From NCBI GenBank assembly GCA_036374055.1, contig DASUUN010000078.1, positions 1 through 39,328 of the forward strand: a stretch of 39,328 bases of DNA, read 5' to 3'. Of the stretch, positions 16,517-37,474 are shown piece after piece; position 1 is the first letter of the stretch; the number at the start of each line of letters is the position of its first letter. The stretch comes from Burkholderiales bacterium (lineage in GTDB: Bacteria > Pseudomonadota > Gammaproteobacteria > Burkholderiales > SG8-39). The notes under the pieces are model-generated. The model saw nothing but the letters and a program-made list of their open reading frames with translations, had not been told where the DNA came from and did no database searches. The position numbers and the translations under genes were made by a program.

Positions 16517-16532
16517 TGCAAAGGCCGTTCCG
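16517..16532 (-). promoter_or_regulatory. sigma-54-type promoter CGGAACGGCCTTTGCA for gene 16486(-)
   Basis: GG-N10-GC spacing with a perfect TTGCA -12 element. The predicted TSS is near 16506, giving a 20-nt leader with GAGGAGG. Confidence 0.55.
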
Positions 16533-16547
16533 GGCACGGCCGTTGCA
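16532..16547 (+). promoter_or_regulatory. sigma-54-type promoter GGGCACGGCCGTTGCA for the PRC-barrel operon
   Basis: Matches GGCACG-N4-TTGCA. Its -24 element shares G16532 with the divergent promoter. GTG 16559 lies exactly 13 nt after the -12 C. Confidence 0.65.
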
Positions 16548-16558
16548 CCGGGGACGGC

Positions 16559-17773
16559 GTGCAGCCCGTGAACAACTTTCTCTTTGCATCTTTTCGCGCC
16601 GGCGCGCTTATCGGGACGCTGCTGCTGGCGTGCGGCGCGCAGGCGGCGCCGGTAAGCGCAGGCGCGCTGCTGGGTGCCCGCGTGGCCGACGCTGAAGGCG
16701 CGCAGCTCGGGACGATTCACGACCTTGCAGTGGACGTCGCTGCCGGTTACGTGCGCTATGCGATCGTCGAAAAAGCCGAGACCAGCCGTAACCAGCGCGA
16801 AGTGCGCGCCGCACCGATCACCGCGCTGCGGCCCGGGCTTGCGCGCGGCCAGCTGGTGCTGGAGTCGCGCACTCAGGTTCCGCCGGGCAATGCCGGCGGC
16901 TACCTCATGCGGGCCAAAGCGATCCTCGGCAGGCCGATCGATCATCCGACCGGCGCCGATTACGGAACCATCCGCGACGTCTTCTTCGAGCTGGAAAGCG
17001 GGCGCGTGCTGCACGCCGAGGTTTCCCTGGAGGCGGCAGCGAACGGCGTAAAGCGCAAGGTGCCATTCGATGCGCTGCGTTTTCCGCCGGCCCAGCCCAA
17101 CGCCATCCTGACGCTCGGGTCCGCCACCCTGCCGGCAAGCCAGCTGATCGGCATGGAGGTGCGCAACCGGGATGCCGGCACCAAAGGCCGCATCGACGAG
17201 CTGGTGGTGGACTTGCATAACAGCCGCGTGCACTACGTCGTGCTCGACATGGAGCACCGGTTGATCACCGAGCCCCTCGAGCGACTATCGTTTACGCCGG
17301 GCAGGCAATACGCCGTATTGCCGAACGCGACCCGCGGCATCGCAGAGCCGCGCGCCGGAATGACGCTGGCACGCGCGAGCGAGCTGATCGGCTGGGAGTT
17401 CGAGAACGAGCCCGGCGTCGACTTGGGCGTCATCAGCGATCTTTCCATCGACCCGCAAACCGGCAGGGTTTCGCACGCGCTCGTGCGGCTGCACGAGGCG
17501 CCGGGCCGTATGCAGCGGCTCGAGCTCAGCCGATTTTCGATGTCGCCGTGGCGCGAGAACCTGGTGCTCGCCGAGCCCTCCGCCGCCGCCGGCGCCACCA
17601 CACCCGCCGGCGGCGTCAATCTCTTCGAGCGGCTCGATCGCGACGGCAATGGTTTTATCGAGGATTCCGAGCTCGATAGCGGTATCGTCGGCCGCAGAAA
17701 CTGGATCGCCGTCGACCTCGATCGCGATGACCGGATCAGTCGGGACGAGTTCACCGCCATGCGCACGCAATGA
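16559..17773 (+). CDS. secreted protein with four PRC-barrel domains and a C-terminal EF-hand pair
   Basis: Signal peptide FRAGALIGTLLLACGAQA. Four units of type LLGARVADAEGAQLGTIHDLAVDVAAGYVRYAIV. EF loops DRDGNGFIEDSE and DLDRDDRISRDE. GTG 16559 chosen, with GTG 16568 as the alternative. Confidence 0.75.
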   Translation: MQPVNNFLFASFRAGALIGTLLLACGAQAAPVSAGALLGARVADAEGAQLGTIHDLAVDVAAGYVRYAIVEKAETSRNQREVRAAPITALRPGLARGQLVLESRTQVPPGNAGGYLMRAKAILGRPIDHPTGADYGTIRDVFFELESGRVLHAEVSLEAAANGVKRKVPFDALRFPPAQPNAILTLGSATLPASQLIGMEVRNRDAGTKGRIDELVVDLHNSRVHYVVLDMEHRLITEPLERLSFTPGRQYAVLPNATRGIAEPRAGMTLARASELIGWEFENEPGVDLGVISDLSIDPQTGRVSHALVRLHEAPGRMQRLELSRFSMSPWRENLVLAEPSAAAGATTPAGGVNLFERLDRDGNGFIEDSELDSGIVGRRNWIAVDLDRDDRISRDEFTAMRTQ

Positions 17774-18321
17774 AGCTGATCCTCGTGCTCCTGGCGGGTG
17801 CCCTGCTCGCTCCCGCCGCGCCCTTGCACGCCGACAACAAGGCGCAGGTACGCGCAACGGAGCTTTTCGGCAGCCGGCTCATAGACAAGGGTGGCGAGGC
17901 GCTCGGCGAAATCGGCGACCTGGTGTTCGACGCGCGCAACGGGGCGCTGCGCTCGGTGGTGGTCGACGGCGTTGCTTTGCCGGTGAGCCGGCTGCTGCCC
18001 GAGGCGGGCGGCCGGCGCTACATCCTGACGGAGCCCGACGACACCCGCCCGACCGCCTTTGCCGAGCCCCGCTGGCCTTCGATGCGCGCAAGCCGCCTGG
18101 TCAGCCATGAGGTAGTCGACCGCCTGCACCGCGATTTCGGCGAGATTCGGGACGTCCTGGTGGATCTCGACCGACGCCGGGTGGGCGGAGTGATCATCGA
18201 TCGCAGAGACGACTGGCAGGCCGGACAGGCGCTGGTCACCGTCCCTGTCGAGGCGCTGTCGCTGCCGCGCGATCTGGGCGACAAGGTGGCGCTCAACTAC
18301 TCCCGCGAGCGCCTCGAATAG
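17770..18321 (+). CDS. secreted PRC-barrel protein (2 barrels)
   Basis: ATGA start/stop overlap with the upstream gene. Signal peptide MKLILVLLAGALLAPAAPLHA. Barrel units LFGSRLIDKGGEALGEIGDLVFDARNGALRSVVV and LVSHEVVDRLHRDFGEIRDVLVDLDRRRVGGVII. Confidence 0.75.
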   Translation: MKLILVLLAGALLAPAAPLHADNKAQVRATELFGSRLIDKGGEALGEIGDLVFDARNGALRSVVVDGVALPVSRLLPEAGGRRYILTEPDDTRPTAFAEPRWPSMRASRLVSHEVVDRLHRDFGEIRDVLVDLDRRRVGGVIIDRRDDWQAGQALVTVPVEALSLPRDLGDKVALNYSRERLE

Positions 18322-18322
18322 C

Positions 18323-18338
18323 GGGCCCGCCGATTGCA
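18323..18338 (+). promoter_or_regulatory. sigma-54-like element GGGCCCGCCGATTGCA upstream of DegQ-2 (internal promoter candidate)
   Basis: GG-N10-GC spacing with a perfect TTGCA -12 element; the -24 lacks the A of GGCAC. The predicted TSS is near 18349, 26 nt before ATG 18375. Confidence 0.4.
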
Positions 18339-18374
18339 TCGAGCTTCTCCGTCCCGATCCCCAAAGGCCCCGCC

Positions 18375-19811
18375 ATGAAAGTCCTCGCCTTCGTTCTAGC
18401 GGCCGTGCTGGCCGCGCCCGCCGCCGCCCAGGCTCAATCCCCGTCACAGGGCGCCACCGCGCCAACCCGGGAGGCCAACCTTCCGGATTTCACCGCGCTC
18501 GTGAAAAAGCAGGGACCGGCGGTCGTCAACGTAATCACTACACGCGCCGCTGCCCAAGGCGGGCCGGCGGGGCTGTCGCCCGATGATCCGTTCTACGAGT
18601 TCTTCCGCCGGTTCATGCCCGAAATGCCGGAAGGCGGGCCGCCGGGGCAGGGCGAAGGGCCGGGCGGCCAGGGCATCGGCTCGGGGTTCATCATCAGCCC
18701 GGACGGCTACATCCTCACCAACGCGCACGTCGTGGCCGGTTCGAAGGAAGTGACGGTGCGCATGGCCGACGCCAAGCGCGAGTTCAAGGCGCAAGTGGTG
18801 GGCACGGACGAGCGCACCGACGTGGCGCTGCTCAAGGTGGATCAGGACAACCTGCCGGTGGTGAAGCTCGGCAAGTCCAGCACGCTGGAGCCTGGCCAAT
18901 GGGTCGCGGCCATCGGCTCGCCGTTCGGATTCGCTAACACCATCACGGCCGGCATCGTCAGCGCCACCGAGCGCGCGCTGCCCGCGGAGACCTACCTGCC
19001 GTTCATCCAGACCGACGTGGCCGTGAATCCCGGCAACTCCGGAGGGCCGCTGCTCAACCTCGACGGCGAAGTGGTCGGCATCAACTCCATGATCTACAGC
19101 CGCACCGGCGGCTACATGGGCGTGTCCTTCGCCATCCCCATCGAAGAGGCGCTCGATGTCTCCAAGCAGCTGCGCGAGCACGGCAAGGTGACGCGCGGCC
19201 GCCTGGGCATCGGCATCCAGCCGGTCACCAAGGAGCTGGCGCAGTCCTTCAAGCTGGATTCCGCCAATGGCGTGGTGGTGGTGCAGGTCGAGCCGGGCAG
19301 CCCGGCGGAAAAGGCCGGCCTGCAAGTCGGCGACGTGATTCTCAGCTACAACGGCAAGACGATCGAAGAAGGCAACATGCTGCCGCGCCTGGTGGGCAAC
19401 ACCAAGCCCGGCCAGCAGGCGAAGCTCGAGATCTGGCGCAAAGGCGAACGCCAGACCGTGACCACGACGGTCGGCGAGCTCCAGCCACGGGCGGAACAAG
19501 CGGCGGCCGGCAAGGCACCCTCGGACGACAAGCCCAGCAAGCTCGGCCTTTCCGTGCGCGAGCTCGCGCCGGACGAGCGCAAGAAGCTCGGGGTCGAGTT
19601 CGGCGTGGTCGTCACCGACATCGCCCAGGGCGCCGCCGCGGCGCGCACGCCGATCCGGCGCGGCGACGTCATCGTGGCGGTCAACCAGGCGCGCTTCAAG
19701 AGCATCGAGGAGTTCAACAAGCTGATCGAGGCGCAGAAGAAAGGCGAGACCGTGGCGCTGCTCGTGCGTCGTGGCGAGGGTGCCATCTATGTCCCCATGG
19801 AAGTGGGGTAG
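18375..19811 (+). CDS. DegQ/MucD-family periplasmic serine endoprotease (HtrA), second copy
   Basis: Signal peptide MKVLAFVLAAVLAAPAAAQA. Catalytic motifs TNAHVV, DVALLKV and GNSGGPL. Two PDZ segments. By eye roughly 60% identical to the 13732 copy across the protease core. Confidence 0.9.
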   Translation: MKVLAFVLAAVLAAPAAAQAQSPSQGATAPTREANLPDFTALVKKQGPAVVNVITTRAAAQGGPAGLSPDDPFYEFFRRFMPEMPEGGPPGQGEGPGGQGIGSGFIISPDGYILTNAHVVAGSKEVTVRMADAKREFKAQVVGTDERTDVALLKVDQDNLPVVKLGKSSTLEPGQWVAAIGSPFGFANTITAGIVSATERALPAETYLPFIQTDVAVNPGNSGGPLLNLDGEVVGINSMIYSRTGGYMGVSFAIPIEEALDVSKQLREHGKVTRGRLGIGIQPVTKELAQSFKLDSANGVVVVQVEPGSPAEKAGLQVGDVILSYNGKTIEEGNMLPRLVGNTKPGQQAKLEIWRKGERQTVTTTVGELQPRAEQAAAGKAPSDDKPSKLGLSVRELAPDERKKLGVEFGVVVTDIAQGAAAARTPIRRGDVIVAVNQARFKSIEEFNKLIEAQKKGETVALLVRRGEGAIYVPMEVG

Positions 19812-20415
19812 CGTGCTGGCGGCGCTCCTCGCGCCGCCCATCGCGCTCGCCGCCGGGTGGATCCGGATGCCGGCGAGCGAGCTGCTCGGCAAGCCGGTGA
19901 TCGACATGCAAGGCGACCGGCTCGGCCGGGTACAGGACCTCGTGGTTGACGTGCGCAATTCGCGGGTGAGCTACGCGATCGTAGGCTTCAACGGCTGGGG
20001 GACGTTGGGCGAAGAGCTGTTCCCCGTCCCGCTGAAATCGCTGGCGCCCGAGCCGGGCGGCTCGCGCGTGACGCTGCAGGTGGCTCCACGCACGCTGCGC
20101 GATGGCGCCTCGATCGACGCGCAAAGCGAGCCGCGGCTGCCGGCCGATGCGCCCCTCAAGCAACACGTACGCGCGAGCGAGCTCGTTGGCCGCCGCGTCA
20201 GCGACCGCACCGGCACGCATGCCGGCGAGATCGAGGAGGCGGTGATCGACATGAACAGCGGGCTCGTGCTTTTCCTCCTGTTCGACTACGACGAGGCCTG
20301 GGGGCTCGATCAGCCGGCGCTGCGCATGGCGCCGCAGGCCTTCAGCTTCCCGGCCGATGGCGGCCCTGCCGTCGTCAACGTGGCGCGCGAGCGCCTTGAA
20401 GACCCCGGTCGCTAG
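19789..20415 (+). CDS. secreted PRC-barrel protein (2 barrels)
   Basis: ATG 19789 overlaps the DegQ-2 3' end by 23 nt. Signal-like MSPWKWGSVLAALLAPPIALAAG. Barrel units LLGKPVIDMQGDRLGRVQDLVVDVRNSRVSYAIV and LVGRRVSDRTGTHAGEIEEAVIDMNSGLVLFLLF. Confidence 0.7.
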   Translation: MSPWKWGSVLAALLAPPIALAAGWIRMPASELLGKPVIDMQGDRLGRVQDLVVDVRNSRVSYAIVGFNGWGTLGEELFPVPLKSLAPEPGGSRVTLQVAPRTLRDGASIDAQSEPRLPADAPLKQHVRASELVGRRVSDRTGTHAGEIEEAVIDMNSGLVLFLLFDYDEAWGLDQPALRMAPQAFSFPADGGPAVVNVARERLEDPGR

Positions 20416-20577
20416 CGTCGCCGCCGCTCGTATCGCCGCCGGCGAGCGGCGGCATGCCACGAAGCGGGCGTAGAACACCGCGATGAGCTGAAAGCCGAAC
20501 AGCGCCTGGATGCCCGGCAGCACCATGCGGCACTCTTCCAGGAGATGACTGGTGGCGGCATCGATCGCCGACCGCAC
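20416..20577 (-). pseudogene. possible 5' remnant of a DUF6328-type membrane protein gene
   Basis: The translation SHLLEECRMVLPGIQALFGFQLIAVFYARF resembles the conserved first TM region of DUF6328 proteins as I recall it. The rest of the family is missing, and the frame runs on as antisense of the PRC gene. Confidence 0.3.
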
Positions 20578-20613
20578 CGCAACTCCCGTGCCGGCCGCGG
20601 CCGCGGCTCCAAG

Positions 20614-20629
20614 GGGAACGCAGCTTGCG
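20614..20629 (+). promoter_or_regulatory. sigma-54-type element GGGAACGCAGCTTGCG upstream of small ORF 20655
   Basis: GG-N10-GC spacing with TTGC. The predicted TSS is near 20640, followed by GGAGGA (20643-20648) and GTG 20655. Confidence 0.45.
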
Positions 20630-20654
20630 GTGTGCCGTATTTGGAGGAAGCGTC

Positions 20655-20882: not shown

Positions 20883-20952
20883 ACCGGCGATCGGCTTCCA
20901 TCACGAGGTGCGGTCCTTCAAGCTGTTCTGCGCAGAAAAGGAGTAGCGAATC

Positions 20953-22770: not shown

Positions 22771-22803
22771 GCCGCCCGAGGGCTGCAGAGCCCTCAGGGC
22801 GGC
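22771..22803. terminator. GC-rich hairpin between convergent genes
   Basis: GCCGCCCGAGGGCT-GCAG-AGCCCTCAGGGCGGC with one bulge, starting 16 nt after the TPP enzyme stop. It includes the stop codon of the minus-strand gene. Confidence 0.5.
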
Positions 22804-23216
22804 AGGCGGCTCGCGATCACCGCGCGAAAGCGCTCGGCCGCGGCCTCCCAGCCGTAACGTGCGTGCCATTCGGGCAGATCGATGAGGTCGAGCTGCGTCA
22901 GTTCCCTGCACGCCCGGTGCACGGCCGCCATCGCCGCCGGATTCAGGCAGCTCGGCAGGAACCGGCAGCAGTGGAATGGAAGGTCGCGGGTCGCGGGGTT
23001 GCTCTTCACCTTGTCGAGCAGCACCGGCATCAGCGAGTCGTCGAAGTGCAGCCCGGCCACGATCGCATGGATGCCGCCTTGCGCGAGGCGCACGAGCGCT
23101 TCCTCGATGGTGAAGACGTAGTGAAGCTCGGCGAACCCGTCCAGGCACCGGGCGACGATGTGGCTGGACTTCCGGCTGGCCGCCACAAGGATGCAGGGCT
23201 TTGCTGAGTGGCCCAC
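22794..23216 (-). CDS. CheY-like pseudo-receiver protein (phospho-acceptor position not Asp)
   Basis: The receiver-like pattern CILVAAS...IHAIVAGLHFDDSLMPVLLDKVK has Gly where the acceptor Asp is expected. GTG 23216 is preferred. The longer form, starting at ATG 23291, would contain both divergent promoters and sit 14 nt from the neighbour's ATG. Confidence 0.5.
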   Translation of the reverse strand: MGHSAKPCILVAASRKSSHIVARCLDGFAELHYVFTIEEALVRLAQGGIHAIVAGLHFDDSLMPVLLDKVKSNPATRDLPFHCCRFLPSCLNPAAMAAVHRACRELTQLDLIDLPEWHARYGWEAAAERFRAVIASRLPP

Positions 23217-23226: not shown

Positions 23227-23242
23227 TGCACGCGTTGTGCCC
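23227..23242 (-). promoter_or_regulatory. sigma-54-type promoter GGGCACAACGCGTGCA for the pseudo-receiver gene
   Basis: GGCAC -24 and GTGCA -12 elements. GTG 23216 lies 12 nt after the -12 C. Confidence 0.5.
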
Positions 23243-23256: not shown

Positions 23257-23272
23257 TGGCACGCGCTTTGCG
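23257..23272 (+). promoter_or_regulatory. sigma-54 promoter TGGCACGCGCTTTGCG for the EF-hand/PG-binding gene
   Basis: Full consensus TGGCAC-N5-TTGC. The predicted TSS is near 23283, giving a 23-nt leader with AAGGAGG 6 nt before ATG 23306. Confidence 0.75.
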
Positions 23273-27881: not shown

Positions 27882-27897
27882 GGGCACGTTCGCTGCT
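27882..27897 (+). promoter_or_regulatory. sigma-54-type promoter GGGCACGTTCGCTGCT for PRC-barrel/EF-hand gene 27937
   Basis: GGCACG-N4-CTGCT. The predicted TSS is near 27908, giving a 29-nt leader with an AAAGGAGA RBS. Confidence 0.65.
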
Positions 27898-27936: not shown

Positions 27937-29103
27937 ATGAAATCGCTTAAACCTCTATTGCTGAGCTTCTCGCTGCTCGCCTTCACCGGCGCGTACGCGC
28001 AGGACGCAAAGAAGGAAAAGGACCAGACGCAGGCAAAACCTGCCATGTCCCAGGCCGATTCGAAGGATGACAAGGCCTCCGGCAGCGCAGCGAAGCAGTC
28101 GCAGCAAAGCTCCGGCGCTTCGGCCGGCGCGAGCAGCTCCACCAGCGGCGCCGGGATGGCGGGCGGGATGAGCGTCAAGAACCTGCGCGGCATGGACGTG
28201 GTGGACTCGCAGGGCAAGGACCTCGGCGAGATCGACGAGGTGATGCTCGACATGGCCGACGGCCGCGTGCATTCCGTGGTGCTCGGCTTCGGCGGTTTTC
28301 TCGGCCTGGGCGAGAAGCACTTCGCCTTCCTGGTAAGCGACCTGCAGCCCGCCAAGGAAAAGAACAAGCTGCAGCTCAACGTCGACAAGGAGAAGCTGAA
28401 GGACCGCGAAGGCTTCGCCAAGGGCAAGTACCCGGCCCCCGACGATGATTACTGGGCGAAAGTCGGCCAGGGCGACAAGTCGGGCGCGGCCGCCGGGGCG
28501 ACCGGCCAGAAGGCGAGCGTCATGCGCGCGAGCAAGGTCATCGGCCAGGACGTCCAGGACAAGAGCGGCCAGGATGTCGGCGAGGTGAAGGACATCGTGC
28601 TCAGCTCGGACCGTACGCGCATCCAGCACGTCGTGCTCGACGTGAAAGGCGCCGGCGAAGCCACGCTCCCGCCGAAGTCCCTGTCGATGGGCAAGGAAGG
28701 CGACAAGCTGGTCGTCGATATGTCGAGCGAGCAGCTGAAGAGCCAGGCGAAGCCCGCTGCCGGCGCGAGCAGCGGCGCGAGCACCACCCGTACGGTCCCG
28801 ATCGAGCGGGACAAGCAGTCCCAGGCCGATACCAAGCCTTCGGGCAGCGCCTCCGCCGGCGCCGGCAGCAGCTCGGCCGGGACGAGCGCGTCGAAGAAGG
28901 GCTTCGCCGAGCTCGACCGCGATAACGACGGCTCCCTGAGCCGGATGGAAGCCGCGGCCGACGCCAACGCCAAATCCAACTTCGAGTCGCTGGACAAGAA
29001 CAGCGACAAGAAGCTGTCACGCTCCGAGTACGAGGGTGGCCAGGGCGCCGCGGCCGGCGCGACGGGCTCGAAGCAAAGCGAGCAGAAGGATAAGTCGAAG
29101 TAA
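27937..29103 (+). CDS. secreted protein with two PRC-barrel domains, low-complexity linkers and a C-terminal EF-hand pair
   Basis: Signal peptide MKSLKPLLLSFSLLAFTGAYA. Barrel units LRGMDVVDSQGKDLGEIDEVMLDMADGRVHSVVL and VIGQDVQDKSGQDVGEVKDIVLSSDRTRIQHVVL. EF loops DRDNDGSLSRME and DKNSDKKLSRSE. Confidence 0.8.
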   Translation: MKSLKPLLLSFSLLAFTGAYAQDAKKEKDQTQAKPAMSQADSKDDKASGSAAKQSQQSSGASAGASSSTSGAGMAGGMSVKNLRGMDVVDSQGKDLGEIDEVMLDMADGRVHSVVLGFGGFLGLGEKHFAFLVSDLQPAKEKNKLQLNVDKEKLKDREGFAKGKYPAPDDDYWAKVGQGDKSGAAAGATGQKASVMRASKVIGQDVQDKSGQDVGEVKDIVLSSDRTRIQHVVLDVKGAGEATLPPKSLSMGKEGDKLVVDMSSEQLKSQAKPAAGASSGASTTRTVPIERDKQSQADTKPSGSASAGAGSSSAGTSASKKGFAELDRDNDGSLSRMEAAADANAKSNFESLDKNSDKKLSRSEYEGGQGAAAGATGSKQSEQKDKSK

Positions 29104-29122: not shown

Positions 29123-29155
29123 GGAAACGGGCTTTCGGGCCCGTTTCCCTTTTTT
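29123..29155 (+). terminator. rho-independent terminator
   Basis: GGAAACGGGC-TTTCGG-GCCCGTTTCC is a 10-bp stem followed by CTTTTTT, starting 20 nt after the stop at 29103. Confidence 0.85.
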
Positions 29156-29191: not shown

Positions 29192-29278
29192 GTGCTGAAA
29201 GTGCTGGCCTGGATCGTCGGGATCATCTTCCTGATCGGCCTGCTGGTGGTGATCGGGGTCTTCGACTTCCTCTTCTGA
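29192..29278 (+). CDS. 28-aa hydrophobic peptide (single TM helix), not in the ORF track
   Basis: GTG lies 5 nt after GAGGA. The translation is MLKVLAWIVGIIFLIGLLVVIGVFDFLF, with G/C-rich third positions, ending at TGA 29276-29278. Confidence 0.45.
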   Translation: MLKVLAWIVGIIFLIGLLVVIGVFDFLF

Positions 29279-29311
29279 GCCGCTGGGACTCCGCACTGTC
29301 GTCGCGGCCGC

Positions 29312-29327
29312 GGGCACGCCGGCTGCT
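29312..29327 (+). promoter_or_regulatory. sigma-54-type promoter GGGCACGCCGGCTGCT for the PPC/DUF296 gene
   Basis: Same GGGCACG-N4-CTGCT form as at 27882 and 35432. ATG 29341 lies 15 nt after the -12 C, a near-leaderless placement. Confidence 0.6.
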
Positions 29328-29340
29328 TGCGTCTACCGAC

Positions 29341-29787
29341 ATGCGTGCAAAACTGCTCAACAGCGACGGCGAGCGGGTGTTCGCCGTCATCTTCGACATC
29401 GGCGAGGACCCGGTCAGCGGCCTCGTTCGCTTCGCCGAGGAGCGGGACCTGAGCGCTTCAGGCTTCACCGCGATCGGCGCTTTCAGCGAGGCGCTGCTCG
29501 GCTACTTCGACTGGGAAAAGAAGGACTACGAGCGCATCCCGGTGAACGAGCAAACCGAGGTGCTCGCCCTGGTCGGCGACATCGCCGTGCAGGAGGGCGG
29601 GCAAAAGAAAGTGCATGCGCACGTGGTGCTTGGGCGGCGGGACGGGGCGGCCTGCGGCGGACATCTCCTCTCGGCGAAGGTGCGGCCTACGCTCGAAGTG
29701 ATTCTCACCGAGTCGCCCGGATACCTGACCCGGGTGCACGACCCCGAGACCGGCCTTGCCTTGATCCGCATCGGGCGCGGCGCATAG
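29341..29787 (+). CDS. PPC (DUF296) domain protein
   Basis: The FAVIFDIGEDPVSGLVRFAEE...GFTAIGAFS...GDIA...HAHVVLG pattern is typical of the PPC/DUF296 fold. Confidence 0.65.
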   Translation: MRAKLLNSDGERVFAVIFDIGEDPVSGLVRFAEERDLSASGFTAIGAFSEALLGYFDWEKKDYERIPVNEQTEVLALVGDIAVQEGGQKKVHAHVVLGRRDGAACGGHLLSAKVRPTLEVILTESPGYLTRVHDPETGLALIRIGRGA

Positions 29788-29791: not shown

Positions 29792-30190
29792 CTAGCCGCG
29801 TTCGCACAGGATCTTGAGCGAGGCCACGCGCCCTGGAAAGCCGAGCTCGCGCAGGTCTTGTACCTCGCGCTGTGGCTCCAGGGAGAAGACCTCTTTGCGG
29901 AAGCCGGGCTCGGCATACGCGACGAGCCTCGCCTCGGGGCCGACCACCACGCTTCGGGCCTGGCGGAAGAACTGCTCCTCGTTCAGCGTCCCGATCAATC
30001 CCGGACCGGCGATCGAGTTGATGTAGAGCGCGCCGGCCAGCCGCCCCATCGGGCGCTCGAAGCCAGGCTCGCTGAAAAAGCCCACCCAGCAGCCCTCGCC
30101 GTAAATCGGGTCGAGCTGCGGCGGGTTGATGTCCGCCGCGCCCGCGGACAAGACGGTCGAAAGCGCAGCGACAAGCGCGAGCCTCACCAT
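29792..30190 (-). CDS. secreted beta/gamma-crystallin-like protein (paralogue of the 15230 domain, degenerate Greek-key motifs)
   Basis: Signal peptide MVRLALVAALSTVLSAGAA. CWVGFFSEPGFERP...VVGPEARLVAYAEPGFRKEVF...SLKILC aligns with CWARLYDSTNFEGN...AVGPKARLTVYDNENYEQ...SVKVAC. The ATG overlaps the upstream stop (ATGGTGA). Confidence 0.6.
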   Translation of the reverse strand: MVRLALVAALSTVLSAGAADINPPQLDPIYGEGCWVGFFSEPGFERPMGRLAGALYINSIAGPGLIGTLNEEQFFRQARSVVVGPEARLVAYAEPGFRKEVFSLEPQREVQDLRELGFPGRVASLKILCERG

Positions 30191-30789
30191 TGCCTGTCCC
30201 ACTCGTGATCGTGCAGGCGCCGGCGCTCGTCCGACGGCTCGCGGCGCACGAATCCCTGCCGCTCCGATACATCGGCCGGCGGATGCTCCACCTGCCAGCG
30301 GGTCAACGGCGGAAAGCGCCCGTGGGCCAGCACCGCGGGCGGCATGTTGCGCCTGCCCCGGTCGGTCTCGACCACCACCCGCTCCACGCGGCCGGACCCC
30401 GGCTCGAACTCGATGTCCGCAATCGTGCCGATGCGGCCGTCGCCGGGATGGGTGACCGGCTGGCCGATGAGCCGGCCGGCGCGGCGAAACTTCGCATCTT
30501 CGCGCGACTTGTCATGGGCTACGGCATTGGTGAGATCCATGTTGAGCCGCATGTGCTCGTCCAAGGCGCGCACCGGCAGCGTATAGAACCTGTCGTGGGC
30601 ATCGAGGATCACGTACACCACGCGTCCGGCGCGCACATCGACGATCAGCTCCTCGACCGCGCCGATCTTCTCGCCGCGCCGGTTCTCTACGGTGTCACCC
30701 AACACGCGGTTAACCGCTGCCGCGCGCGCCTCCAGCACCGGCAGGCTTGCGACCGCCACGAACACGGCGATCATTGCGTTCTTGAGCAT
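30184..30789 (-). CDS. secreted PRC-barrel protein (2 barrels)
   Basis: Signal peptide MLKNAMIAVFVAVASLPVLEARA. Barrel units VLGDTVENRRGEKIGAVEELIVDVRAGRVVYVIL and LIGQPVTHPGDGRIGTIADIEFEPGSGRVERVVV. Confidence 0.75.
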   Translation of the reverse strand: MLKNAMIAVFVAVASLPVLEARAAAVNRVLGDTVENRRGEKIGAVEELIVDVRAGRVVYVILDAHDRFYTLPVRALDEHMRLNMDLTNAVAHDKSREDAKFRRAGRLIGQPVTHPGDGRIGTIADIEFEPGSGRVERVVVETDRGRRNMPPAVLAHGRFPPLTRWQVEHPPADVSERQGFVRREPSDERRRLHDHEWDRQW

Positions 30790-30800
30790 GTGATTCCTGT

Positions 30801-30816
30801 CGCACGAATCGTGCCG
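30801..30816 (-). promoter_or_regulatory. sigma-54-type promoter CGGCACGATTCGTGCG for the PRC-barrel/crystallin operon
   Basis: GGCACG -24 and GTGCG -12 elements. ATG 30789 lies exactly 13 nt after the -12 C. Confidence 0.6.
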
Positions 30817-30831
30817 GGCGCGGCGCTTGCA
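30816..30831 (+). promoter_or_regulatory. sigma-54-like promoter GGGCGCGGCGCTTGCA for ORF 30843
   Basis: GG-N10-GC spacing with a perfect TTGCA. It shares G30816 with the divergent promoter. GTG 30843 lies exactly 13 nt after the -12 C. Confidence 0.5.
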
Positions 30832-30842
30832 GGTCGTAGACG

Positions 30843-31430
30843 GTGCGCGTCCTTGTCGCCATTGCAGTGCACGCCTTCGCCCGTTCCTGGCGACCGGAGG
30901 GCGGAATCGCGCTTGGAAAGACCATCCTGCGCATCGGCGCAGCTGCGGCGCTGCTCTTTTCCAGCCTGGCCATTGCGCAGGCGGGCAAGGACTTGATCCG
31001 CGCCTCGGGCGAGGTGCTCGGCACGTTGCAGATCCGCACAAGCAGCGGGACCACGCGCGAACTGGTCAAGCTGCAGCGAGCCGACGGCGGCCGCGTGGTG
31101 GTCGATCTGGGCAAGGCCGCCGCGCGCGTGCAGCGGGGGGAACGCGTATTTGTCCAGGGGCATCCGGGGAGGATCAGCGGCAAGCCGGTGATTTTCGCCC
31201 GCTATGTCGCCGAGCTGCCGGAAGTGGATAGGCGCGGCGAGCCCGGTGCCTCGACCGGCACGAGCGGCGCGCCGCTCGGCCAATTGAAGCGCGACGATTT
31301 CGGCTACTACCACGACGGCTTGGAATGGACCTCGGCGGATCCCGCGTTCGAATCCTTCTATAGCGACGCCGAGAACGCCTGGGATGCCTACGGCACGACG
31401 TCGACCCGGCCGCCGCCTCGCACGAGGTAG
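30843..31430 (+). CDS. hypothetical secreted protein
   Basis: High GC3 and an internal signal-like segment KTILRIGAAAALLFSSLAIAQA. The start is uncertain: GTG 30843 fits the promoter geometry, and GTG 30867 is the alternative. Confidence 0.5.
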   Translation: MRVLVAIAVHAFARSWRPEGGIALGKTILRIGAAAALLFSSLAIAQAGKDLIRASGEVLGTLQIRTSSGTTRELVKLQRADGGRVVVDLGKAAARVQRGERVFVQGHPGRISGKPVIFARYVAELPEVDRRGEPGASTGTSGAPLGQLKRDDFGYYHDGLEWTSADPAFESFYSDAENAWDAYGTTSTRPPPRTR

Positions 31431-32092: not shown

Positions 32093-35000
32093 CGCGTGCC
32101 GCCCGCGGCGGCGCTGCGGCCGGTGTCCAGCGCCAGCACCGTGGGGACGCCTTCCTTTCCGGCTTCGCGGCTGTCCGGTGCATCCAGCCGCACGCGCGAG
32201 GGCTCCACACCGTGCGAAAGGAGCGCGGCGCGCACCGTCTCGGCGCGGGCGCGGGCGAGCGTCTCGACGCTTTGCGCATCGACCTGCAGCGTGCCGGCCA
32301 GCGCCTGGAGGAGCGCGCGCGGATAGCGCGGCTCCTTCTCGCGCAGCTCGAGCATCTGCAGCCGGTTGCCGACGCGCTCAAGGTACAGACGCTCCGCCGC
32401 CTGCAGCACCTTGGGATCGGTGAAATCGAGCGGCCCCCGCCCTTCGACGCCCGCGCGCTGCGCGATTGCGCGCCTTGCGGTATCGCGGCGCAGCGCCTCG
32501 AGGTCGGCCTGCGGGTCGTAGCCTCCTTGCACCGCGATGTCGAGCCGCGGGCGCTCCGCGAGCGCCTTGGCCACCTGCGCCACCGTTTCCTCCGCGGGCG
32601 GGGTAAGCGAAGCCGAGCCGGGCGCGAAAGCCACGCGGTCCAGGTTTTCGCCGCCCTTGCCGAAAACGCCGGCGAGGACGCGAAACGGCGCGGAGGCGAT
32701 CTTGCCGACCACGTTGCCCAGCGCGCGTGCGATCAGGCCGCCGAAATCGAACTGCGGGTCGTTCAGGTCGCCGCTCACCGGAATGTCGAGGTTGATCCGC
32801 CCCTTGGCATCGGCGAGCAGCGCCACCACCAGCTCGAGCGGCAGGTCGCGCACGCCGGCGCCGCGCACCTTGTCGCCAAGCTGCAGCTTCTCGAAGGTGA
32901 GATCGTTCTCCCCCACGAGACGCCCCTGGCGCACGCGGTAGCGCAGCTCGGCTGAAACGCGCCCCGACTCCACGCGGTACCCCGCGAAGCGCACGACGTA
33001 CGGGGTGAGCGCCGCGAGATCGAGGTTGCGAAAATTGGCGCGGATGTTGGTAAGCGAGGTCGGCTGGTCGAGATTCACCGTGCCGCCGATGCGCGCGGCG
33101 CCGTAGTCGCCCACGCGGCCCGAAAGCTGCACCCGCGCCGGATTGCCTGGCTCGGTGCTGAACCCGGTGACGGTCCCGGAGAGCTCGGCCACCGTGACGG
33201 CGAAGTCGTTCTCGAGCGAGCGGTCCGCAAAATCCAGCGTGCCGTTCTCGATGCGCAGCCGGCGCACGGCTACCTGCGTCTTCGGCGCATCGTCAGCGCC
33301 CTTCTTGTCGCTGCTCACGACCGCGGCGAAGTTGAGCTGGCCCGTCTCCTCGATTACCAGGCGCCCGGCCGGGGCGCGGGCCACCACTTCGCCGAGCTGC
33401 GCTCGGAAGGGGTCGAGCGAGAGCGCCGCCTCGTCGGTCCGCAGGCTCTCCCAGGCGAGCAGCAGGTCGCCGGAGGCGCGCTCCTCGATGCGCGCATCGC
33501 GCACGGCAAGCGATCCCTCGTAGCGCGCGCCTGCTTCATCCCACACGACTTGCCCGTCGACGGCAAGCCGCCCGGATACGATGTTGAGCGCCACGCTTTC
33601 GGGAAGCCAGCGGTTGGCTTGCGCGAGCGGCACGCCCTCGGCGTGCACCTGGAGGGCGGCGGCGAAAGGCTGGGTCGCTATCGTTCCGCTCGCGCGCACC
33701 GGTATCGGCTCCTCATCCGGCAGCACCACGTTGGCGTTGCGCAGCTCGATGCGCGCCGGCTCATCCTGCGTGGTGCTGAAGCCGGCAACTTCACCCTCTA
33801 TATCGCGCACCGCGAGCGCGACTTCGGGATGAGAAAGCTGCAGCGCGCCGCGTTCCACACGCAGCCGCTCCACCGACACCGGGGGGCGAGCTTCGCTTCG
33901 CGCCTCGCCGCCTGTCCCGTCCAACACAAGCCGGCCGGTCGGCGCCTGGGCGAGGACCTCGCCGAGCTCCGCGCGAAACGGTGCGAAGGACAAGGCCGCC
34001 TGGCCGGTCTCCAGATTGTCCCAGGCGACCAGCAGCTCACCCGAGCCGCGTTCTTCCAGGCGCGCCTCGCGCAGCGCGAGCGCACCCTCGTAGCGCGCGC
34101 CCTGCGCTTCGATGGCGAGACGGCCATCGGCATCCAGCCGGCCCGAGGCGACTTGCACGCCCGCGTCCTCCGGCAGCCAGGGATTGGCCTGCGCAAGCGG
34201 CAGCCCTTCGGCCTGCGCCTGCAAGTCGGCCGAAAAGGGGGCGATGCCGATGCGGCCCGACGCATGGATCGTCCCCTCGGGGGCGACGCGCGCCGTGGCG
34301 CTCGCCTCGAACGGCGCTTCCACCGGTAGGGCGATGCGAGGCGCCCGCAGCACGAGTTGCGAGAGCTCGACGCCGGCGTGCGCGAGGCGCGTGCCCTCGA
34401 GCGTCACCTCGCTCAACACGAGCTGCTCCCCGTCGTAAGCGTACGCGGCCGAGCCGCGGATCTGACCGCTGCCCGGCTCGCTCGCCGGCGCGGCGAGCGA
34501 CCAGACGGTCTCGAGCGCGACATCGGCGATGCTCAGCTTTCCCTGCGCCGACAGCGGATCGAGCGCGAGGCTGCCCTCGGACGACAAGGCGCCGCCCTGC
34601 GCGGTGCGCGCCTGCAGCTCATAGCGACCGCGCTCTCCTTGCCGGGTGGACAGGCCGTCGGCCCGAAGCTCGATCGCCTCGAAGCGAATCTCCACCGGCG
34701 CGGCGCGCGAGCGGTCGACAAAGCGCAGGGCGCCGCCCTGGACGGTAAGCTGCTCGATCAGCCAGGCAAGCCGCGGCTCGGCCGCCTCGCCGGCGCTGGC
34801 GTTGCGCGCCGCCGGCCAGTTCAGCTCGCCCTGCGGACCGAGCTCGACCTCGGCCCAGGGCTCGTGCAGCGCCGCCGCCTGCAGGCGCCAGGCATCGCTC
34901 CAGAGCGACGACCATGCGAGGTCGGCGCCGAAGCGCTGCGCGCGGGCGAGCTCGCGCCCGTCTGCGAGCACGCGCGCACCGTCCACCGAGAGGGTGAGGG

Positions 35001-35166
35001 AAAAAGGATTGGTGCGGACTTCGCCTAGCTCGAGCGCCAGCCCCAGCCGCGCGGCCCGCTCGATGAGCGCGTCGCGCACGAAACGCGGCGCAAGCCAGTA
35101 GCCGGCGGCCGCGTAGAGGACGATGGCAAGCCCGGCAATCGCCGCAGCGAGCAGGGCTTTGCGCAT
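32089..35166 (-). CDS. large envelope protein, DUF748/AsmA-like with internal domain duplication
   Basis: ATG 35166 (MRKALLAAAIAGLAIVLYAAAGYWLAP, an N-terminal anchor). Repeated blocks GLPLAQANPWLPE...GARYEGALALREARLEE are typical of DUF748 proteins as I recall them. Confidence 0.65.
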   Translation of the reverse strand: MRKALLAAAIAGLAIVLYAAAGYWLAPRFVRDALIERAARLGLALELGEVRTNPFSLTLSVDGARVLADGRELARAQRFGADLAWSSLWSDAWRLQAAALHEPWAEVELGPQGELNWPAARNASAGEAAEPRLAWLIEQLTVQGGALRFVDRSRAAPVEIRFEAIELRADGLSTRQGERGRYELQARTAQGGALSSEGSLALDPLSAQGKLSIADVALETVWSLAAPASEPGSGQIRGSAAYAYDGEQLVLSEVTLEGTRLAHAGVELSQLVLRAPRIALPVEAPFEASATARVAPEGTIHASGRIGIAPFSADLQAQAEGLPLAQANPWLPEDAGVQVASGRLDADGRLAIEAQGARYEGALALREARLEERGSGELLVAWDNLETGQAALSFAPFRAELGEVLAQAPTGRLVLDGTGGEARSEARPPVSVERLRVERGALQLSHPEVALAVRDIEGEVAGFSTTQDEPARIELRNANVVLPDEEPIPVRASGTIATQPFAAALQVHAEGVPLAQANRWLPESVALNIVSGRLAVDGQVVWDEAGARYEGSLAVRDARIEERASGDLLLAWESLRTDEAALSLDPFRAQLGEVVARAPAGRLVIEETGQLNFAAVVSSDKKGADDAPKTQVAVRRLRIENGTLDFADRSLENDFAVTVAELSGTVTGFSTEPGNPARVQLSGRVGDYGAARIGGTVNLDQPTSLTNIRANFRNLDLAALTPYVVRFAGYRVESGRVSAELRYRVRQGRLVGENDLTFEKLQLGDKVRGAGVRDLPLELVVALLADAKGRINLDIPVSGDLNDPQFDFGGLIARALGNVVGKIASAPFRVLAGVFGKGGENLDRVAFAPGSASLTPPAEETVAQVAKALAERPRLDIAVQGGYDPQADLEALRRDTARRAIAQRAGVEGRGPLDFTDPKVLQAAERLYLERVGNRLQMLELREKEPRYPRALLQALAGTLQVDAQSVETLARARAETVRAALLSHGVEPSRVRLDAPDSREAGKEGVPTVLALDTGRSAAAGGTR
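33151..34290 (-). repeat. in-frame tandem duplication (2 x ~570 nt, ~190 aa units) within the DUF748 gene
   Basis: Residues ~293-482 and ~483-672 align. For example FSADLQAQAEGLPLAQANPWLPEDAG pairs with FAAALQVHAEGVPLAQANRWLPESVA, and GARYEGALALREARLEERGSGELLVAWDNL pairs with GARYEGSLAVRDARIEERASGDLLLAWESL. Confidence 0.75.
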
Positions 35167-35431
35167 TACTGCTTTCTTGCGAGCGCCCGCGCAAGCTCCT
35201 TCTTGCTCATCCCCGAGCGTCCGGCGTGTCGGGAAGCTTCTGTCGGCCAGGCATGAAGTTCTCCTTTCACGCCTTTTGCAAACAAAGTTCGTGCCTGAAC
35301 CCAGGCCGTTCTTTGCATTCGGGCGTCGCTCTGCGCGCGGCACGCGTCCCGGGAGGGAAATCGGTGCAACGGCCCGCTGTAAGAAAGTCGCGCGCCTTCG
35401 GCGGCAGGCGCGCTCTCGCTGCGCAGCAGCC

Positions 35432-35447
35432 GGGCACGCTGTCTGCT
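35432..35447 (+). promoter_or_regulatory. sigma-54-type promoter GGGCACGCTGTCTGCT for PRC-barrel gene 35491
   Basis: GGCACG-N4-CTGCT. The predicted TSS is near 35458, giving a 33-nt leader with an AAAGGAA RBS. Confidence 0.65.
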
Positions 35448-35490
35448 CTCAGGAGAGTCTGCGGTTTACCCTCGTTAAAAGGAACTCATT

Positions 35491-36225
35491 ATGAAATTCG
35501 CCAAGCCATTCCTCATCAGCTTCTCGCTGCTCGCCTTTGCCGGCGCCGCCCAGGCACAGAGCGGTCAGCAGCAAGGCGCGCGGCAACAGCTAGGCGTGCA
35601 GCAGCAATCGCAGCAAAAGGGCGAGATGCGCACGAGCGAGCTGATCGGCCAGAAGGTGAAGGACAGCCAGGGCAAGGAGCTCGGCGAGATCAAGGACGTG
35701 GTGCTCGACTTGCAGGGCGGCAAGGTGCACGCCGCGGTGCTCGAGTTCGGCGGCTTCATGGGCGTCGGCGAGAAGAACTTCGCCTTCCCCCTCCGCCAGC
35801 TCGAGCCCGGCGGCGAGCAGGGGCAGCTGACGATGAACATCGACAAGCAGAAGCTCGAGAACGCCGAGGGCTTCGCGCAGGGCCAGTGGCCGGCGATGGA
35901 TGACGAGTACTGGGGCCGCATCGGCGGCCAGGCGAGCACCGGCGAGACCCGGCCGCAGGGCGAGCCGCAGCGCAAGGTGCTGGTGCGGGCGAGCGAGCTC
36001 GACGGCAAGACGGTGCAGGACAACAGCGGCCAGGACGTCGGCGAGATCCGCCACGTGATGGTCGACATGAAGAGCGGCCAGCTGCGCGACATCGTCGTCG
36101 ACGTGAAAGACGCCGGCCAGGCACGCGTGCAGGCGAGCTCGCTCTCCATAGGTACCGGCGACAAGCTGGTGCTCGACATGGACGCCGGGCAGCTCAAGCG
36201 CCAGGGCGGCGGCAACCGTCAGTAA
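35491..36225 (+). CDS. secreted PRC-barrel protein (2 barrels), paralogue of 27937 without EF-hands
   Basis: Signal peptide MKFAKPFLISFSLLAFAGAAQA. Barrel units LIGQKVKDSQGKELGEIKDVVLDLQGGKVHAAVLEFGGFMGVGEKNFAF and LDGKTVQDNSGQDVGEIRHVMVDMKSGQLRDIVV. Confidence 0.8.
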   Translation: MKFAKPFLISFSLLAFAGAAQAQSGQQQGARQQLGVQQQSQQKGEMRTSELIGQKVKDSQGKELGEIKDVVLDLQGGKVHAAVLEFGGFMGVGEKNFAFPLRQLEPGGEQGQLTMNIDKQKLENAEGFAQGQWPAMDDEYWGRIGGQASTGETRPQGEPQRKVLVRASELDGKTVQDNSGQDVGEIRHVMVDMKSGQLRDIVVDVKDAGQARVQASSLSIGTGDKLVLDMDAGQLKRQGGGNRQ

Positions 36226-36237
36226 ATCCGCGCGCCG

Positions 36238-36831
36238 CTAGGCGAACGCCCGTGCGAGCCGCCGGCTCGGGTGCTCGAGCTCGGCGGCGCGCGCGCGGCT
36301 GAAGTACCAGACGCAGGCGATGGCCACCGCGATGTCGACGGCAAGCGGAGCCGCGAACGTCAGCTGCGCCATGGTGAGCAGGACTATCACGGCAAGCAGC
36401 CCCTTGCCGCCGCCGAAGACCAGCCAGCAGGCGAGGCCGTAAGCCGTCGCCGCCGCGATGGCGAGCGGCGGCGCCGCGTGGAGCCCGAGGCCGAGGCGCA
36501 GCTCGCCGAAGGGCGCGAAGGGCAGCTGCTGCGCGTGCAGGGCGAGATCGAGCAAGAGGTGCAGCACGATGGCGAGCGCAGCGGCCGCCCCCAGCGCGCG
36601 CCGGCGCAGCAGCCGCCCGACGAGCAGCCACGCCACGGCGGCGGCGAGCAGCAGGGAAACCACCGAATGGGAGTAGGGCATGCCCATGCCCGCACCTTCG
36701 ATGCCGGCGAAGCCCAGGCCCACCCAGGCGATCGCCGGCAGCTCGGCCGCAAGGAGAATCCATCCCATGCGTGCCTCCGGATAGCGCCGCTTCACGAGCA
36801 GCGCGGTTGCCGCGTGGCTTATGGCCAGCAT
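36238..36831 (-). CDS. integral membrane protein, possibly YdjM/DUF457-type metal-dependent hydrolase
   Basis: Five to six hydrophobic helices. His-containing motifs SHAATALL, YSHSVV and HLLLD resemble the family. Confidence 0.5.
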   Translation of the reverse strand: MLAISHAATALLVKRRYPEARMGWILLAAELPAIAWVGLGFAGIEGAGMGMPYSHSVVSLLLAAAVAWLLVGRLLRRRALGAAAALAIVLHLLLDLALHAQQLPFAPFGELRLGLGLHAAPPLAIAAATAYGLACWLVFGGGKGLLAVIVLLTMAQLTFAAPLAVDIAVAIACVWYFSRARAAELEHPSRRLARAFA

Positions 36832-36873
36832 TCTTCTCTCCCTTCCCCGCGCGTGCAGTCTGCAGGAGACCGG

Positions 36874-36890
36874 CTTAAGGACGACTTAAC
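36874..36890 (-). promoter_or_regulatory. PmrA/QseB-type box CTTAAG-GACGA-CTTAAC in a divergent intergenic region
   Basis: On the minus strand the order is box, 11 nt, CAGACT, then a 25-nt leader with GGGAGAG before ATG 36831. Confidence 0.6.
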
Positions 36891-36955
36891 GCCCGGCGCG
36901 ACGCAACACCGTGCTTTTGCAAGGATTCCTCCCGATGGCCGGTGAAACGCCGGCA

Positions 36956-36971
36956 GGGCCTGAACTTTGCA
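36956..36971 (+). promoter_or_regulatory. sigma-54-like promoter GGGCCTGAACTTTGCA for the chalcone-isomerase-like gene
   Basis: GG-N10-GC spacing with a perfect TTGCA. ATG 36983 lies exactly 13 nt after the -12 C. Confidence 0.45.
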
Positions 36972-36982
36972 GCGCCAGGGGC

Positions 36983-37474
36983 ATGAAGCTCAGCGCCGTT
37001 CTACTCGCGGTCTTCGCCGCCACGGCATCGGCCGACCCGGCGCTGCAGCCCGCAGCCTGCGGGGTGCGCAACACGCTCTGGATCCAGCACTACGCCGCCC
37101 GGCTGTATGTCCCCGCCGGCACCTCCATCGAGGCGCTCAGCGATCCGGCGAAGCCGAAGATGCTGAGGATGCGCATGCTCAACACGTTTCTCATGCCGCC
37201 CGAGATCCCGCGCAAGTGGCGCGAGGCGCTGCAGCCGGTGCTCGACCCGGATGCCATGAAGCGGCTGCAGGCGGGCTATGACGGATTGCGCGACGGCGAT
37301 AGCGTCGTCGTCACCTACCAGCCGCAGAAGGGCATCGCGCTCAGCATCAACGATCGCACGGTGGCAACCGCCAAGGGGCACGCGGCGATCGACGCGCTGC
37401 TTGCCGCATGGGCGGACGACGCGCCGCTCGAGCAGAAGCTGGCCGGCACCGCCTCGCGGAACCGCTGCGCCTGA
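36983..37474 (+). CDS. secreted chalcone-isomerase-like (Chalcone_3) family protein
   Basis: Signal peptide MKLSAVLLAVFAATASA. The HYAARLYVPAG...KMLRMRMLNTF pattern resembles the bacterial CHI-like family. Confidence 0.5.
   Translation: MKLSAVLLAVFAATASADPALQPAACGVRNTLWIQHYAARLYVPAGTSIEALSDPAKPKMLRMRMLNTFLMPPEIPRKWREALQPVLDPDAMKRLQAGYDGLRDGDSVVVTYQPQKGIALSINDRTVATAKGHAAIDALLAAWADDAPLEQKLAGTASRNRCA

Follow-up and report, generated by a model that had tools for sequence, protein, structure and literature searches.

Sigma-54 promoters and leaderless mRNAs are each textbook subjects that have been studied in largely separate organisms, and to our knowledge the leaderless-rich phyla (Deinococcus-Thermus and Actinobacteria) lack sigma-54. 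Sigma-54 transcripts known to date carry leaders that are either normal or long. Here we analyse a 39,328-nt stretch of DNA from a Burkholderiales bacterium (GenBank contig DASUUN010000078.1, positions 1 to 39,328; hereafter the window), in which six of thirteen predicted sigma-54 (-24/-12) promoters lie so close to the start codon of the following gene that the transcript would carry no leader. Expression of these six genes from leaderless sigma-54 transcripts is the best explanation of the short spacing and, judged from sequence, a likely one.

The canonical sigma-54 promoters glnAp2, nifH and Pu have the consensus TGGCACG-N4-TTGCW with GG and GC 10 nt apart, and the window sites resemble them in this, in their orientation and in the presence, within the same locus, of a class with an ordinary leader and a Shine-Dalgarno (SD) sequence. 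They differ in forming back-to-back divergent pairs with overlapping -24 elements and no activator gene or site found nearby, and in that about 40% of the sites abut a start codon, whereas the 5' untranslated regions (UTRs) of E. coli sigma-54 mRNAs range from ordinary to very long (PMC4591121). The same study takes the transcription start site (TSS) as 19 bp from the motif centre, and in Campylobacter the end of the sigma-54 motif lies 8-13 nt upstream of the TSS (PMC3847290).

The other close comparison is with leaderless mRNAs of the sigma-70 type, in which a -10 box lies 6-8 nt before the ATG and which occur in Deinococcus-Thermus, Actinobacteria, lambda cI and, as a minority, in rhizobia and Cupriavidus. 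The likeness lies in the predicted lack of a 5' UTR and SD, in a start codon at the predicted +1 and in the misplacement of starts by gene callers; the difference is that the spacers of the window sites lack the -10 box. Because no such box is present, the window sites are not leaderless promoters of the sigma-70 type, and at the level of sequence they have the features of sigma-54 promoters. The leaderless motif of Bradyrhizobium is an extended -10, and according to that paper no other specific promoters of leaderless genes had been described (PMC4842269). The share of leaderless mRNAs in Cupriavidus is 4.7%, and no link to sigma-54 is reported there (PMC7563307). Leaderless mRNAs and sigma-54 promoters both appear in the TSS atlases of Sinorhizobium, Bradyrhizobium, Leptospira, Campylobacter and Cupriavidus, as separate subjects that the authors do not connect, and a Myxococcus study has a leaderless sigma-A transcript beside a sigma-54 promoter, which is a different case. 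According to a preliminary description of the window, made from the sequence, leaderless expression is not known as a regular feature of sigma-54 promoters; no description of sigma-54-driven leaderless mRNAs was found in the searchable literature, which excludes subscription journals.

Two spacing classes of sigma-54-type sites

Thirteen sites in the window fit cGGGCACG-N4-yTGCa, each oriented towards the adjoining downstream gene (Table 1). GG and TGC are invariant and the GG-to-GC gap is exactly 10 nt in all thirteen, 10-13 of the 13 sites agree in each of the columns G-G-C/A-A-C-G and T-G-C, and each site departs from the extended consensus TGGCACG-N4-TTGCW by one to three mismatches. Thirteen of the 14 top weight-matrix matches in the window lie directly upstream of a gene. 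Loose patterns (GG-N10-GC, or the consensus with 3 mismatches) are not enriched in the window over shuffled sequence, so that such counts are useless as evidence and the signal resides in position and spacing.

Spacing between the -12 C and the start codon has a bimodal distribution, with 12, 13, 13, 13, 13 and 15 nt in one class and 27, 32, 35, 38, 39, 41 and 45 nt in the other. All six short spacings listed in the preliminary description were reproduced, and the coexistence of two promoter classes that it had proposed is seen both in the window and in relatives. Its figure of 20-33 nt for the leaders of the second class needs widening to about 14-33 nt, the leader of 20655 being only ~15 nt, and its statement that all leadered genes but 18375 have a clear ribosome-binding site holds for five genes and fails for 35491, where the site is also weak. 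Calculated duplexes with the anti-SD sequence are weak at the six short-spacing genes (-1.7 to -5.7 kcal/mol) and of the GGAGG type at five of the seven leadered genes (-8.7 to -13 kcal/mol); leadered genes 18375 (-3.2) and 35491 (-5.6 kcal/mol) overlap the range of the six.

A scan of 15-24 kb and 28.9-37.1 kb for sigma-70 consensus promoters found none, the GC-rich spacers between the -12 element and the start codon contain no TANNNT or TGnTA -10 box, and no Rfam family matched. For five of the six short-spacing genes the next gene upstream is divergent, with intergenic regions of 72, 89, 53 (common to two genes) and 151 nt. With a divergent neighbour or the strong terminator of Table 1 upstream of all six genes, read-through is unlikely.

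Table 1. Predicted sigma-54-type promoters of the window, the genes behind the short-spacing sites, and associated features (distances are from the -12 C to the start codon)
Feature	Position	Strand	Details
Sigma-54-type promoter GGGCACGGCCGTTGCA	16532..16547	+	-12 C 16546; GTG 16559 at 13 nt; 18.9 bits
PRC-barrel/EF-hand secreted protein	16559-17773	+	gene behind 16532 promoter
Sigma-54-type promoter GGGCACAACGCGTGCA	23227..23242	-	-12 C 23228; GTG 23216 at 12 nt
140-aa protein, no Pfam match	22794-23216	-	gene behind 23227 promoter
Sigma-54-type promoter GGGCACGCCGGCTGCT	29312..29327	+	-12 C 29326; ATG 29341 at 15 nt
PCC/DUF296 protein	29341-29787	+	gene behind 29312 promoter
Sigma-54-type promoter CGGCACGATTCGTGCG	30801..30816	-	-12 C 30802; ATG 30789 at 13 nt
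Secreted PRC-barrel protein	30184-30789	-	gene behind 30801 promoter
Sigma-54-type promoter GGGCGCGGCGCTTGCA	30816..30831	+	-12 C 30830; GTG 30843 at 13 nt
195-aa protein of unknown function	30843-31430	+	gene behind 30816 promoter
Sigma-54-type promoter GGGCCTGAACTTTGCA	36956..36971	+	-12 C 36970; ATG 36983 at 13 nt
Secreted chalcone-isomerase-like protein	36983-37474	+	gene behind 36956 promoter
Leadered sigma-54-type promoter	15909..15924	-	39 nt to ATG 15871; AGGAGG; crystallin/EF-hand protein
Leadered sigma-54-type promoter	16517..16532	-	32 nt to ATG 16486; GGAGG; back-to-back with 16532(+) promoter
Leadered sigma-54-type promoter	18323..18338	+	38 nt to ATG 18375 (DegP-like protease); weak SD; conserved in L082, L099, L101
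Leadered sigma-54-type promoter	20614..20629	+	27 nt to GTG 20655; GGAGG; 75-aa open reading frame, then TPP-enzyme operon
Leadered sigma-54-type promoter TGGCACGCGCTTTGCG	23257..23272	+	35 nt to ATG 23306; AGGAGG; EF-hand/peptidoglycan-binding protein; conserved in L082
Leadered sigma-54-type promoter	27882..27897	+	41 nt to ATG 27937; AAGGAG; PRC/EF-hand protein
Leadered sigma-54-type promoter	35432..35447	+	45 nt to ATG 35491; weak SD AAGGAA; PRC-barrel protein
Strong intrinsic terminator	29123..29148	+	11-bp stem then T-run; between PRC gene 27937-29103 and PCC gene
~50-nt insertion	29287..29336	+	absent from close relatives L082, L083 (alignment); carries 29312 promoter, replaces ancestral GAGGG ribosome-binding site

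The 13-nt spacing in related contigs

A weight matrix trained on the 13 window sites only was applied, at a threshold of at least 10 bits, to 109 kb of related contigs (L002, L081-83, L085-87, L089, L092, L093, L096, L099 and L101-104), which were fetched via orthologous proteins by exact-protein look-ups, out of NCBI bins and metagenomes of JGI, ENA and Logan. A metagenome scan with the PRC alignment gave 7 loci, and a genome-contig scan with the FAD-oxidase gave 80 loci in which only the metabolic core is syntenic and which were used as negative controls. The related contigs hold 47 distinct matches, of which 14 have an ATG at exactly 13 nt, with 2, 3 and 1 more at 12, 14 and 15 nt. The other 52 offsets have a mean of 0.71 ATG and a maximum of 4, which gives the 13-nt peak a Poisson P of ~5e-14. 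No peak was obtained with a reversed-matrix decoy. In 156 kb of beta- and gammaproteobacterial control loci (L003-L012) there are 23 matches with zero ATG at 12-15 nt and the usual cluster near 39-42 nt, and 1.26 Mb of mostly acidobacterial loci have no peak. The presence of the peak in the related contigs and its absence from the controls indicate that the pattern is specific to this group of organisms and is not an artefact of site choice.

The exact 13-nt spacing occurs in at least 15 gene families of the related contigs, and the fused layout extends to further families that include DUF2254, DUF748, DUF179, CAP, a cytoplasmic PRC protein (L002) and a Tat-signal protein (L086). Before many other genes of the same islands the motif stands at 27-57 nt and is followed by an SD. 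At 15 of 22 fused sites a C directly precedes the start codon, at -1 (background 0.35). RNA polymerase prefers to start at a purine (+1) preceded by a pyrimidine (-1), and the C at -1 in most sites agrees with a transcript that begins on the A or G of the start codon.

Start codons of the short-spacing genes

Comparison with orthologues supports the assigned N-terminus as the true one for four of the six genes. At 29341, homologues from L001, L006 and three close relatives (L082-84) share the N-terminus MRAKLL/MRHKLL, and those from L013 and L015, more diverged in their N-terminal sequence, have their first residue at the matching place in the alignment. At 30789, the signal peptide is of equal length in 46 aligned orthologues (47-99% identity). 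The orthologues P0091 (MAVSPKPCILVAAS) and P0093 begin at the residue aligned with GTG 23216; the database gene caller picked GTG 23231, which lies inside the -12 element and makes the product 5 codons too long. The N-terminus of this 140-residue product, compared by eye only, we take to resemble a response-regulator receiver. The L092 and L093 orthologues of 36983 begin MRLAVLLL and MKLLLAFA at the aligned position; an exact-protein look-up of the 36983 product returned no record.

The two remaining genes are less well defined. At 16559, orthologue signal peptides are of similar length and fix the start only to within 3 codons. At 30843, a stop codon stands two codons upstream, which makes GTG 30843 the first possible start, and the sole other in-frame start is GTG 30867, 24 nt downstream. 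Codon-position substitution counts against the 99% relative L081 draw on too few differences to inform, and the 30843 product has no detectable homology to the product of the divergent gene of L093. The three GTG starts, and among them especially 30843 and 16559, are weaker than the ATG starts, and 30843 is the weakest start-codon case of all. Thus the six starts proposed in the preliminary description fare unequally: four are upheld by orthologue N-termini or signal peptides, 16559 stands only to within 3 codons, and 30843 only as the first start after a stop.

The starts 29341, 30789 and 30843 (three of six) are also those used by the collection's own gene caller. In the relatives, the gene caller placed the start of the L093 PRC orthologue at an ATG at 70 nt (10001), which is 19 codons short and cuts the signal peptide; only the in-frame ATG at 13 nt restores the signal peptide of the family (MRKHPTFEVAALLLAAVLG...). 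The gene-caller start at L096 12732 is ~40 codons too long, and the Tat signal in L086 begins at an ATG 14 nt from the -12 C.

Conservation and turnover of the spacing

Sigma-54-type sites are conserved in the orthologous loci of L081, L082, L092, L093, L087 and L104, and orthologues at 51-86% identity keep a spacing of 13-15 nt while the spacer sequence has diverged. In the PRC family of 30789 the spacing is 13 nt in the window (acaggaatcac), 14 nt in L092 (gcggggagcacc; 86% protein identity to the window), 13 nt in L093 (gcggccaaggc; 60%), 13 nt in L087 (gcgcgcaggcg; 51%) and 13 nt at the L081 locus. In the chalcone-isomerase-like family of 36983 it is 13 nt in the window, 15 nt at L092 3976(-) and 13 nt at L093 13156(-), with unrelated spacers. 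In the family of 23216, where the window has a GTG at 12 nt, the 78% orthologue of L104 has TGGCACGCGCCATGCA followed by 11 nt and an ATG, which equals 13 nt, and the L102 orthologue has 45 nt.

The PCC family gives a case of gain. The PCC genes of L001, L006, L013, L015 and L082-84 have an SD and no sigma-54 motif, that of L103 has a promoter at 35 nt and an SD, and the 29312 promoter of the window sits within an insertion (Table 1). From such comparisons, genes have evidently moved between a leadered and a fused state. Between the terminator and the PCC gene there is also a 28-codon open reading frame (ORF) at 29192-29278 (VLKVLAWIVGIIFLIGLLVVIGVFDFLF) with its own GAGGA ribosome-binding site; it encodes a small hydrophobic, presumably membrane, peptide and is nearly identical in L082-84, where a 12-nt gap separates it from the PCC gene with its SD.

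Divergent geometry

Two back-to-back 16-mers, which overlap at base 30816, and two 11-nt spacers account for the whole of the 53-nt region 30790-30842. The same back-to-back geometry is found at 16517-16547 within the 72-nt intergenic region, and L093 has the architecture of the 30843/30789 pair, with the ATG of its divergent gene at 13 nt. The intergenic regions leave no room for an upstream activator site, so that an activator would be left with binding within coding DNA or with action from solution. The overlapping -24 elements of the divergent pairs share a CCGGG core, both in the window (16517-16547 and 30801-30831) and in relatives (L093 ~9890-10001, L096 6128-6187, L101 166-264 and L086 ~1593-1632). 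Two holoenzymes could hardly bind such overlapping -24 elements at once.

Proposed mechanism and alternative explanations

We propose that the sigma-54 holoenzyme would bind the -24/-12 element, that an AAA+ activator would remodel the complex, and that initiation ~12-13 nt past the -12 C would make +1 coincide with the start codon or precede it by 1-2 nt. For the six of the thirteen promoters that have their -12 element fused to coding DNA, the product would be an mRNA without leader or SD, and its 5'-terminal AUG or GUG would be bound by a 70S ribosome or a 30S-IF2-tRNA complex. The other seven promoters would give ordinary leaders of 14-33 nt with an SD. We infer a TSS at the start codon from the 12-15 nt between the -12 C and the start, the published positions of sigma-54 TSSs and the C at -1. 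The leaderless sigma-54 transcripts put forward in the preliminary description thus gain support from the spacing peak, the weak SDs, the backing for the start codons, the spacing in orthologues and the C at -1.

A number of observations weigh against this explanation. Half of the short-spacing starts in the window are GTG (3 ATG, 3 GTG), whereas the comparable sites of relatives are almost exclusively ATG (15 of 16). GTG is a poor leaderless start in E. coli, where leaderless translation needs a 5'-terminal AUG, and mycobacteria tolerate GUG. With a spacing of 14-15 nt the leader would be 1-3 nt long, and leaders of this length lower leaderless translation in E. coli. At 16559, a second GTG 9 nt (3 codons) downstream, 16568, is preferred by the database gene caller, and the orthologues have either a 30-nt spacing with AGGAGG (L101) or an operonic position behind a BON-domain gene (L099). 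The 30843 product has an odd N-terminus with two hydrophobic stretches, and four of its seven amino-acid differences from the 99% relative L081 fall in the first 16 residues. No sigma-54 activator gene (PF00158; GAFTGA and related motifs) was found in the window or any related locus, a k-mer search for a common upstream activator sequence gave nothing significant, and rpoN is not encoded in the window. The activator may be encoded elsewhere or act without DNA binding.

Part of these observations would be accommodated if the promoters were real and translation began at a downstream in-frame codon or behind a short unstructured SD-less leader, mainly at 16559 (GTG 16568) and 30843 (GTG 30867). 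In-frame GTGs do lie 9 and 24 nt downstream, the gene caller uses the first of them, the first 16 residues of the 30843 product evolve fast, and GTG is rare at comparable sites of relatives. We nevertheless hold this account to be unlikely: the alternative GTGs have no SD, the 13-nt spacing of both upstream GTGs coincides with the sharp ATG peak elsewhere, and in the ATG cases conserved signal peptides would be lost. Distinctly unlikely, in our view, is that promoters farther upstream, inside the neighbouring genes, give leadered mRNAs and that the motif is a regulatory site, whether a place where sigma-54 holoenzyme binds without being active, or an operator for a transcription factor or for translational control. 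Such a site would agree with the outcome of the searches of the window and related loci, which gave neither an activator gene nor an upstream activator site, and most sigma-54 binding sites of E. coli are not classical promoters (PMC4591121). It would not predict a fixed 13 nt with C at -1, as a TSS does, and the same motif at 27-57 nt with an SD before many island genes is what a promoter would predict; the want of a sigma-70 consensus promoter nearby and of an Rfam match, and the terminator upstream of 29341, also speak against it. Finally, GG-N10-GC is ubiquitous in a genome of 69% GC, and fitting start codons might have been picked by chance or selection bias, as the lack of enrichment of loose patterns over shuffles would allow. 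This we regard as extremely improbable and effectively refuted by the peak that the window-trained matrix finds in contigs outside the window, by the lack of a peak with the reversed matrix and in the control loci, by the independent gene-caller choice of three of the six starts and by the orthologue N-termini that back four.

Returning to leaderless sigma-54 transcription, we lean on balance towards a wider version of it, in which a clade of uncultured soil and groundwater Burkholderiales would possess a dedicated leaderless sigma-54 regulon. About 40% of its -24/-12 promoters would be fused, with +1 at the A of the start codon, and many would form divergent back-to-back pairs that make up the whole intergenic region. 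The products would be secreted envelope and stress proteins, and expression would need both an ATP-dependent activator, possibly without an adjacent site, and a 70S-type leaderless route, with new members arising by small SD-deleting promoter insertions as at 29341. More speculatively, the activator-dependent promoter and leaderless translation would gate expression twice under stress. If true, leaderless expression would not depend on sigma-70 -10 boxes, these genes would offer natural substrates for the way in which proteobacterial ribosomes handle a 5'-terminal AUG or GUG, and stress genes may be under two-key control, by the activator at transcription and the leaderless route at translation. 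There is also a practical side. Software that calls genes on the expectation of an SD or a -10 box misplaces starts at fused promoters (16568 and 23231 in the window, 10001 in L093, 12732 in L096), so that signal peptides are truncated or extended in metagenome annotations, and a rule of '-12 GC plus 13 nt' could mend them.

The gene island and its relatives

The GC content is 66-73% across the window, and the nearest homologues of its conserved FAD-oxidase (75-78% identity) are in bins labelled Burkholderiales or Betaproteobacteria. The part from 15.2 to 38.4 kb encodes seven PRC-barrel proteins, with EF-hand motifs in several of them and in two other proteins, together with DegP-like protease, beta/gamma-crystallin, CAP, DUF748/AsmA-like, PCC (DUF296) and chalcone-isomerase-like proteins and a metabolic operon of thiamine pyrophosphate (TPP) enzyme, MR-MLE and FAD-oxidase genes. 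Most of the small island proteins have a signal peptide at the N-terminus. A second DegP-like protease lies just upstream of the island (13732-15150), and an OmpR-type two-component system is found at 11658-13669. The window is best explained as part of a stress-type gene island, with mostly secreted products and many sigma-54 (-24/-12) promoters, in an uncultured Burkholderiales-like soil betaproteobacterium. A tblastn search of the PRC protein against plasmids gave no match.

Relatives L082, L092, L093 and L096 share with 15.2-38.4 kb of the window a common gene content in heavily reshuffled order; it comprises PRC, EF-hand, DegP, CAP, DUF748, PCC, chalcone-isomerase-like, hydrolase, DUF2795 and BON genes. 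At one junction promoter and terminator are exchanged, a sigma-54 promoter in L083 standing where L082 has a terminator. On this comparison the island is very plastic.

The gene content overlaps that of the alphaproteobacterial general stress response regulon (sigma-EcfG/PhyR), in which small secreted PRC-barrel, BON and EF-hand stress proteins are encoded in scattered islands, each with its own alternative-sigma promoter. The likeness would be one of functional analogy only: the promoter there is GGAAC-N16-17-CGTT and here -24/-12, and the organism here is a betaproteobacterium. The GGAAC-containing sites were also considered as extracytoplasmic function (ECF)-type promoters and dismissed as such, since 4 nt, rather than 16-17 nt, separate their two conserved blocks.

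The hexamer CTTAAG, rare in 69% GC DNA, occurs in 8 copies in the window against 1.5 expected. Pairs of the form CTTAAG-N5-CTTAAG (11-bp period) lie at 11631-11647, just upstream of the OmpR-type regulator gene 11658, and at 38758-38774, and single copies at 11090, 13665 (upstream of DegP 13732), 36874 and 38421. Pairs of 'gccTTAAGgc' fill intergenic regions in L082, L092 and L096. The CTTAAG pairs are probably the operator of the OmpR-type two-component regulator and mark a second regulon interleaved with the sigma-54 one.

For the DUF748 gene (35166-35296 region, minus strand) the probable start is ATG ~35166 (MRKALLAAAIAG) and not the GTG 35343 of the longest ORF. This ATG is preceded by a weak sigma-54-like site without GC (AGGCACGAACTTTGTT) and by a pair of tiny ORFs, 15 and 14 codons long, of which the latter overlaps the start as TAATG. 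The L096 orthologue has a weak 7.3-bit sigma-54-like site with an ATG at 15 nt.

A good sigma-54 promoter (TGGCACA-N4-CTTGC) stands before the TPP-enzyme/MR-MLE/FAD-oxidase operon in L003 (6965), L004 (6972), L005 (4478) and L002 (6448), as at 20614 in the window. It is present in several Oxalobacteraceae and betaproteobacterial bins, with a normal leader every time, and its occurrence in these bins places the operon in a sigma-54 regulon that extends well beyond the clade of the window.

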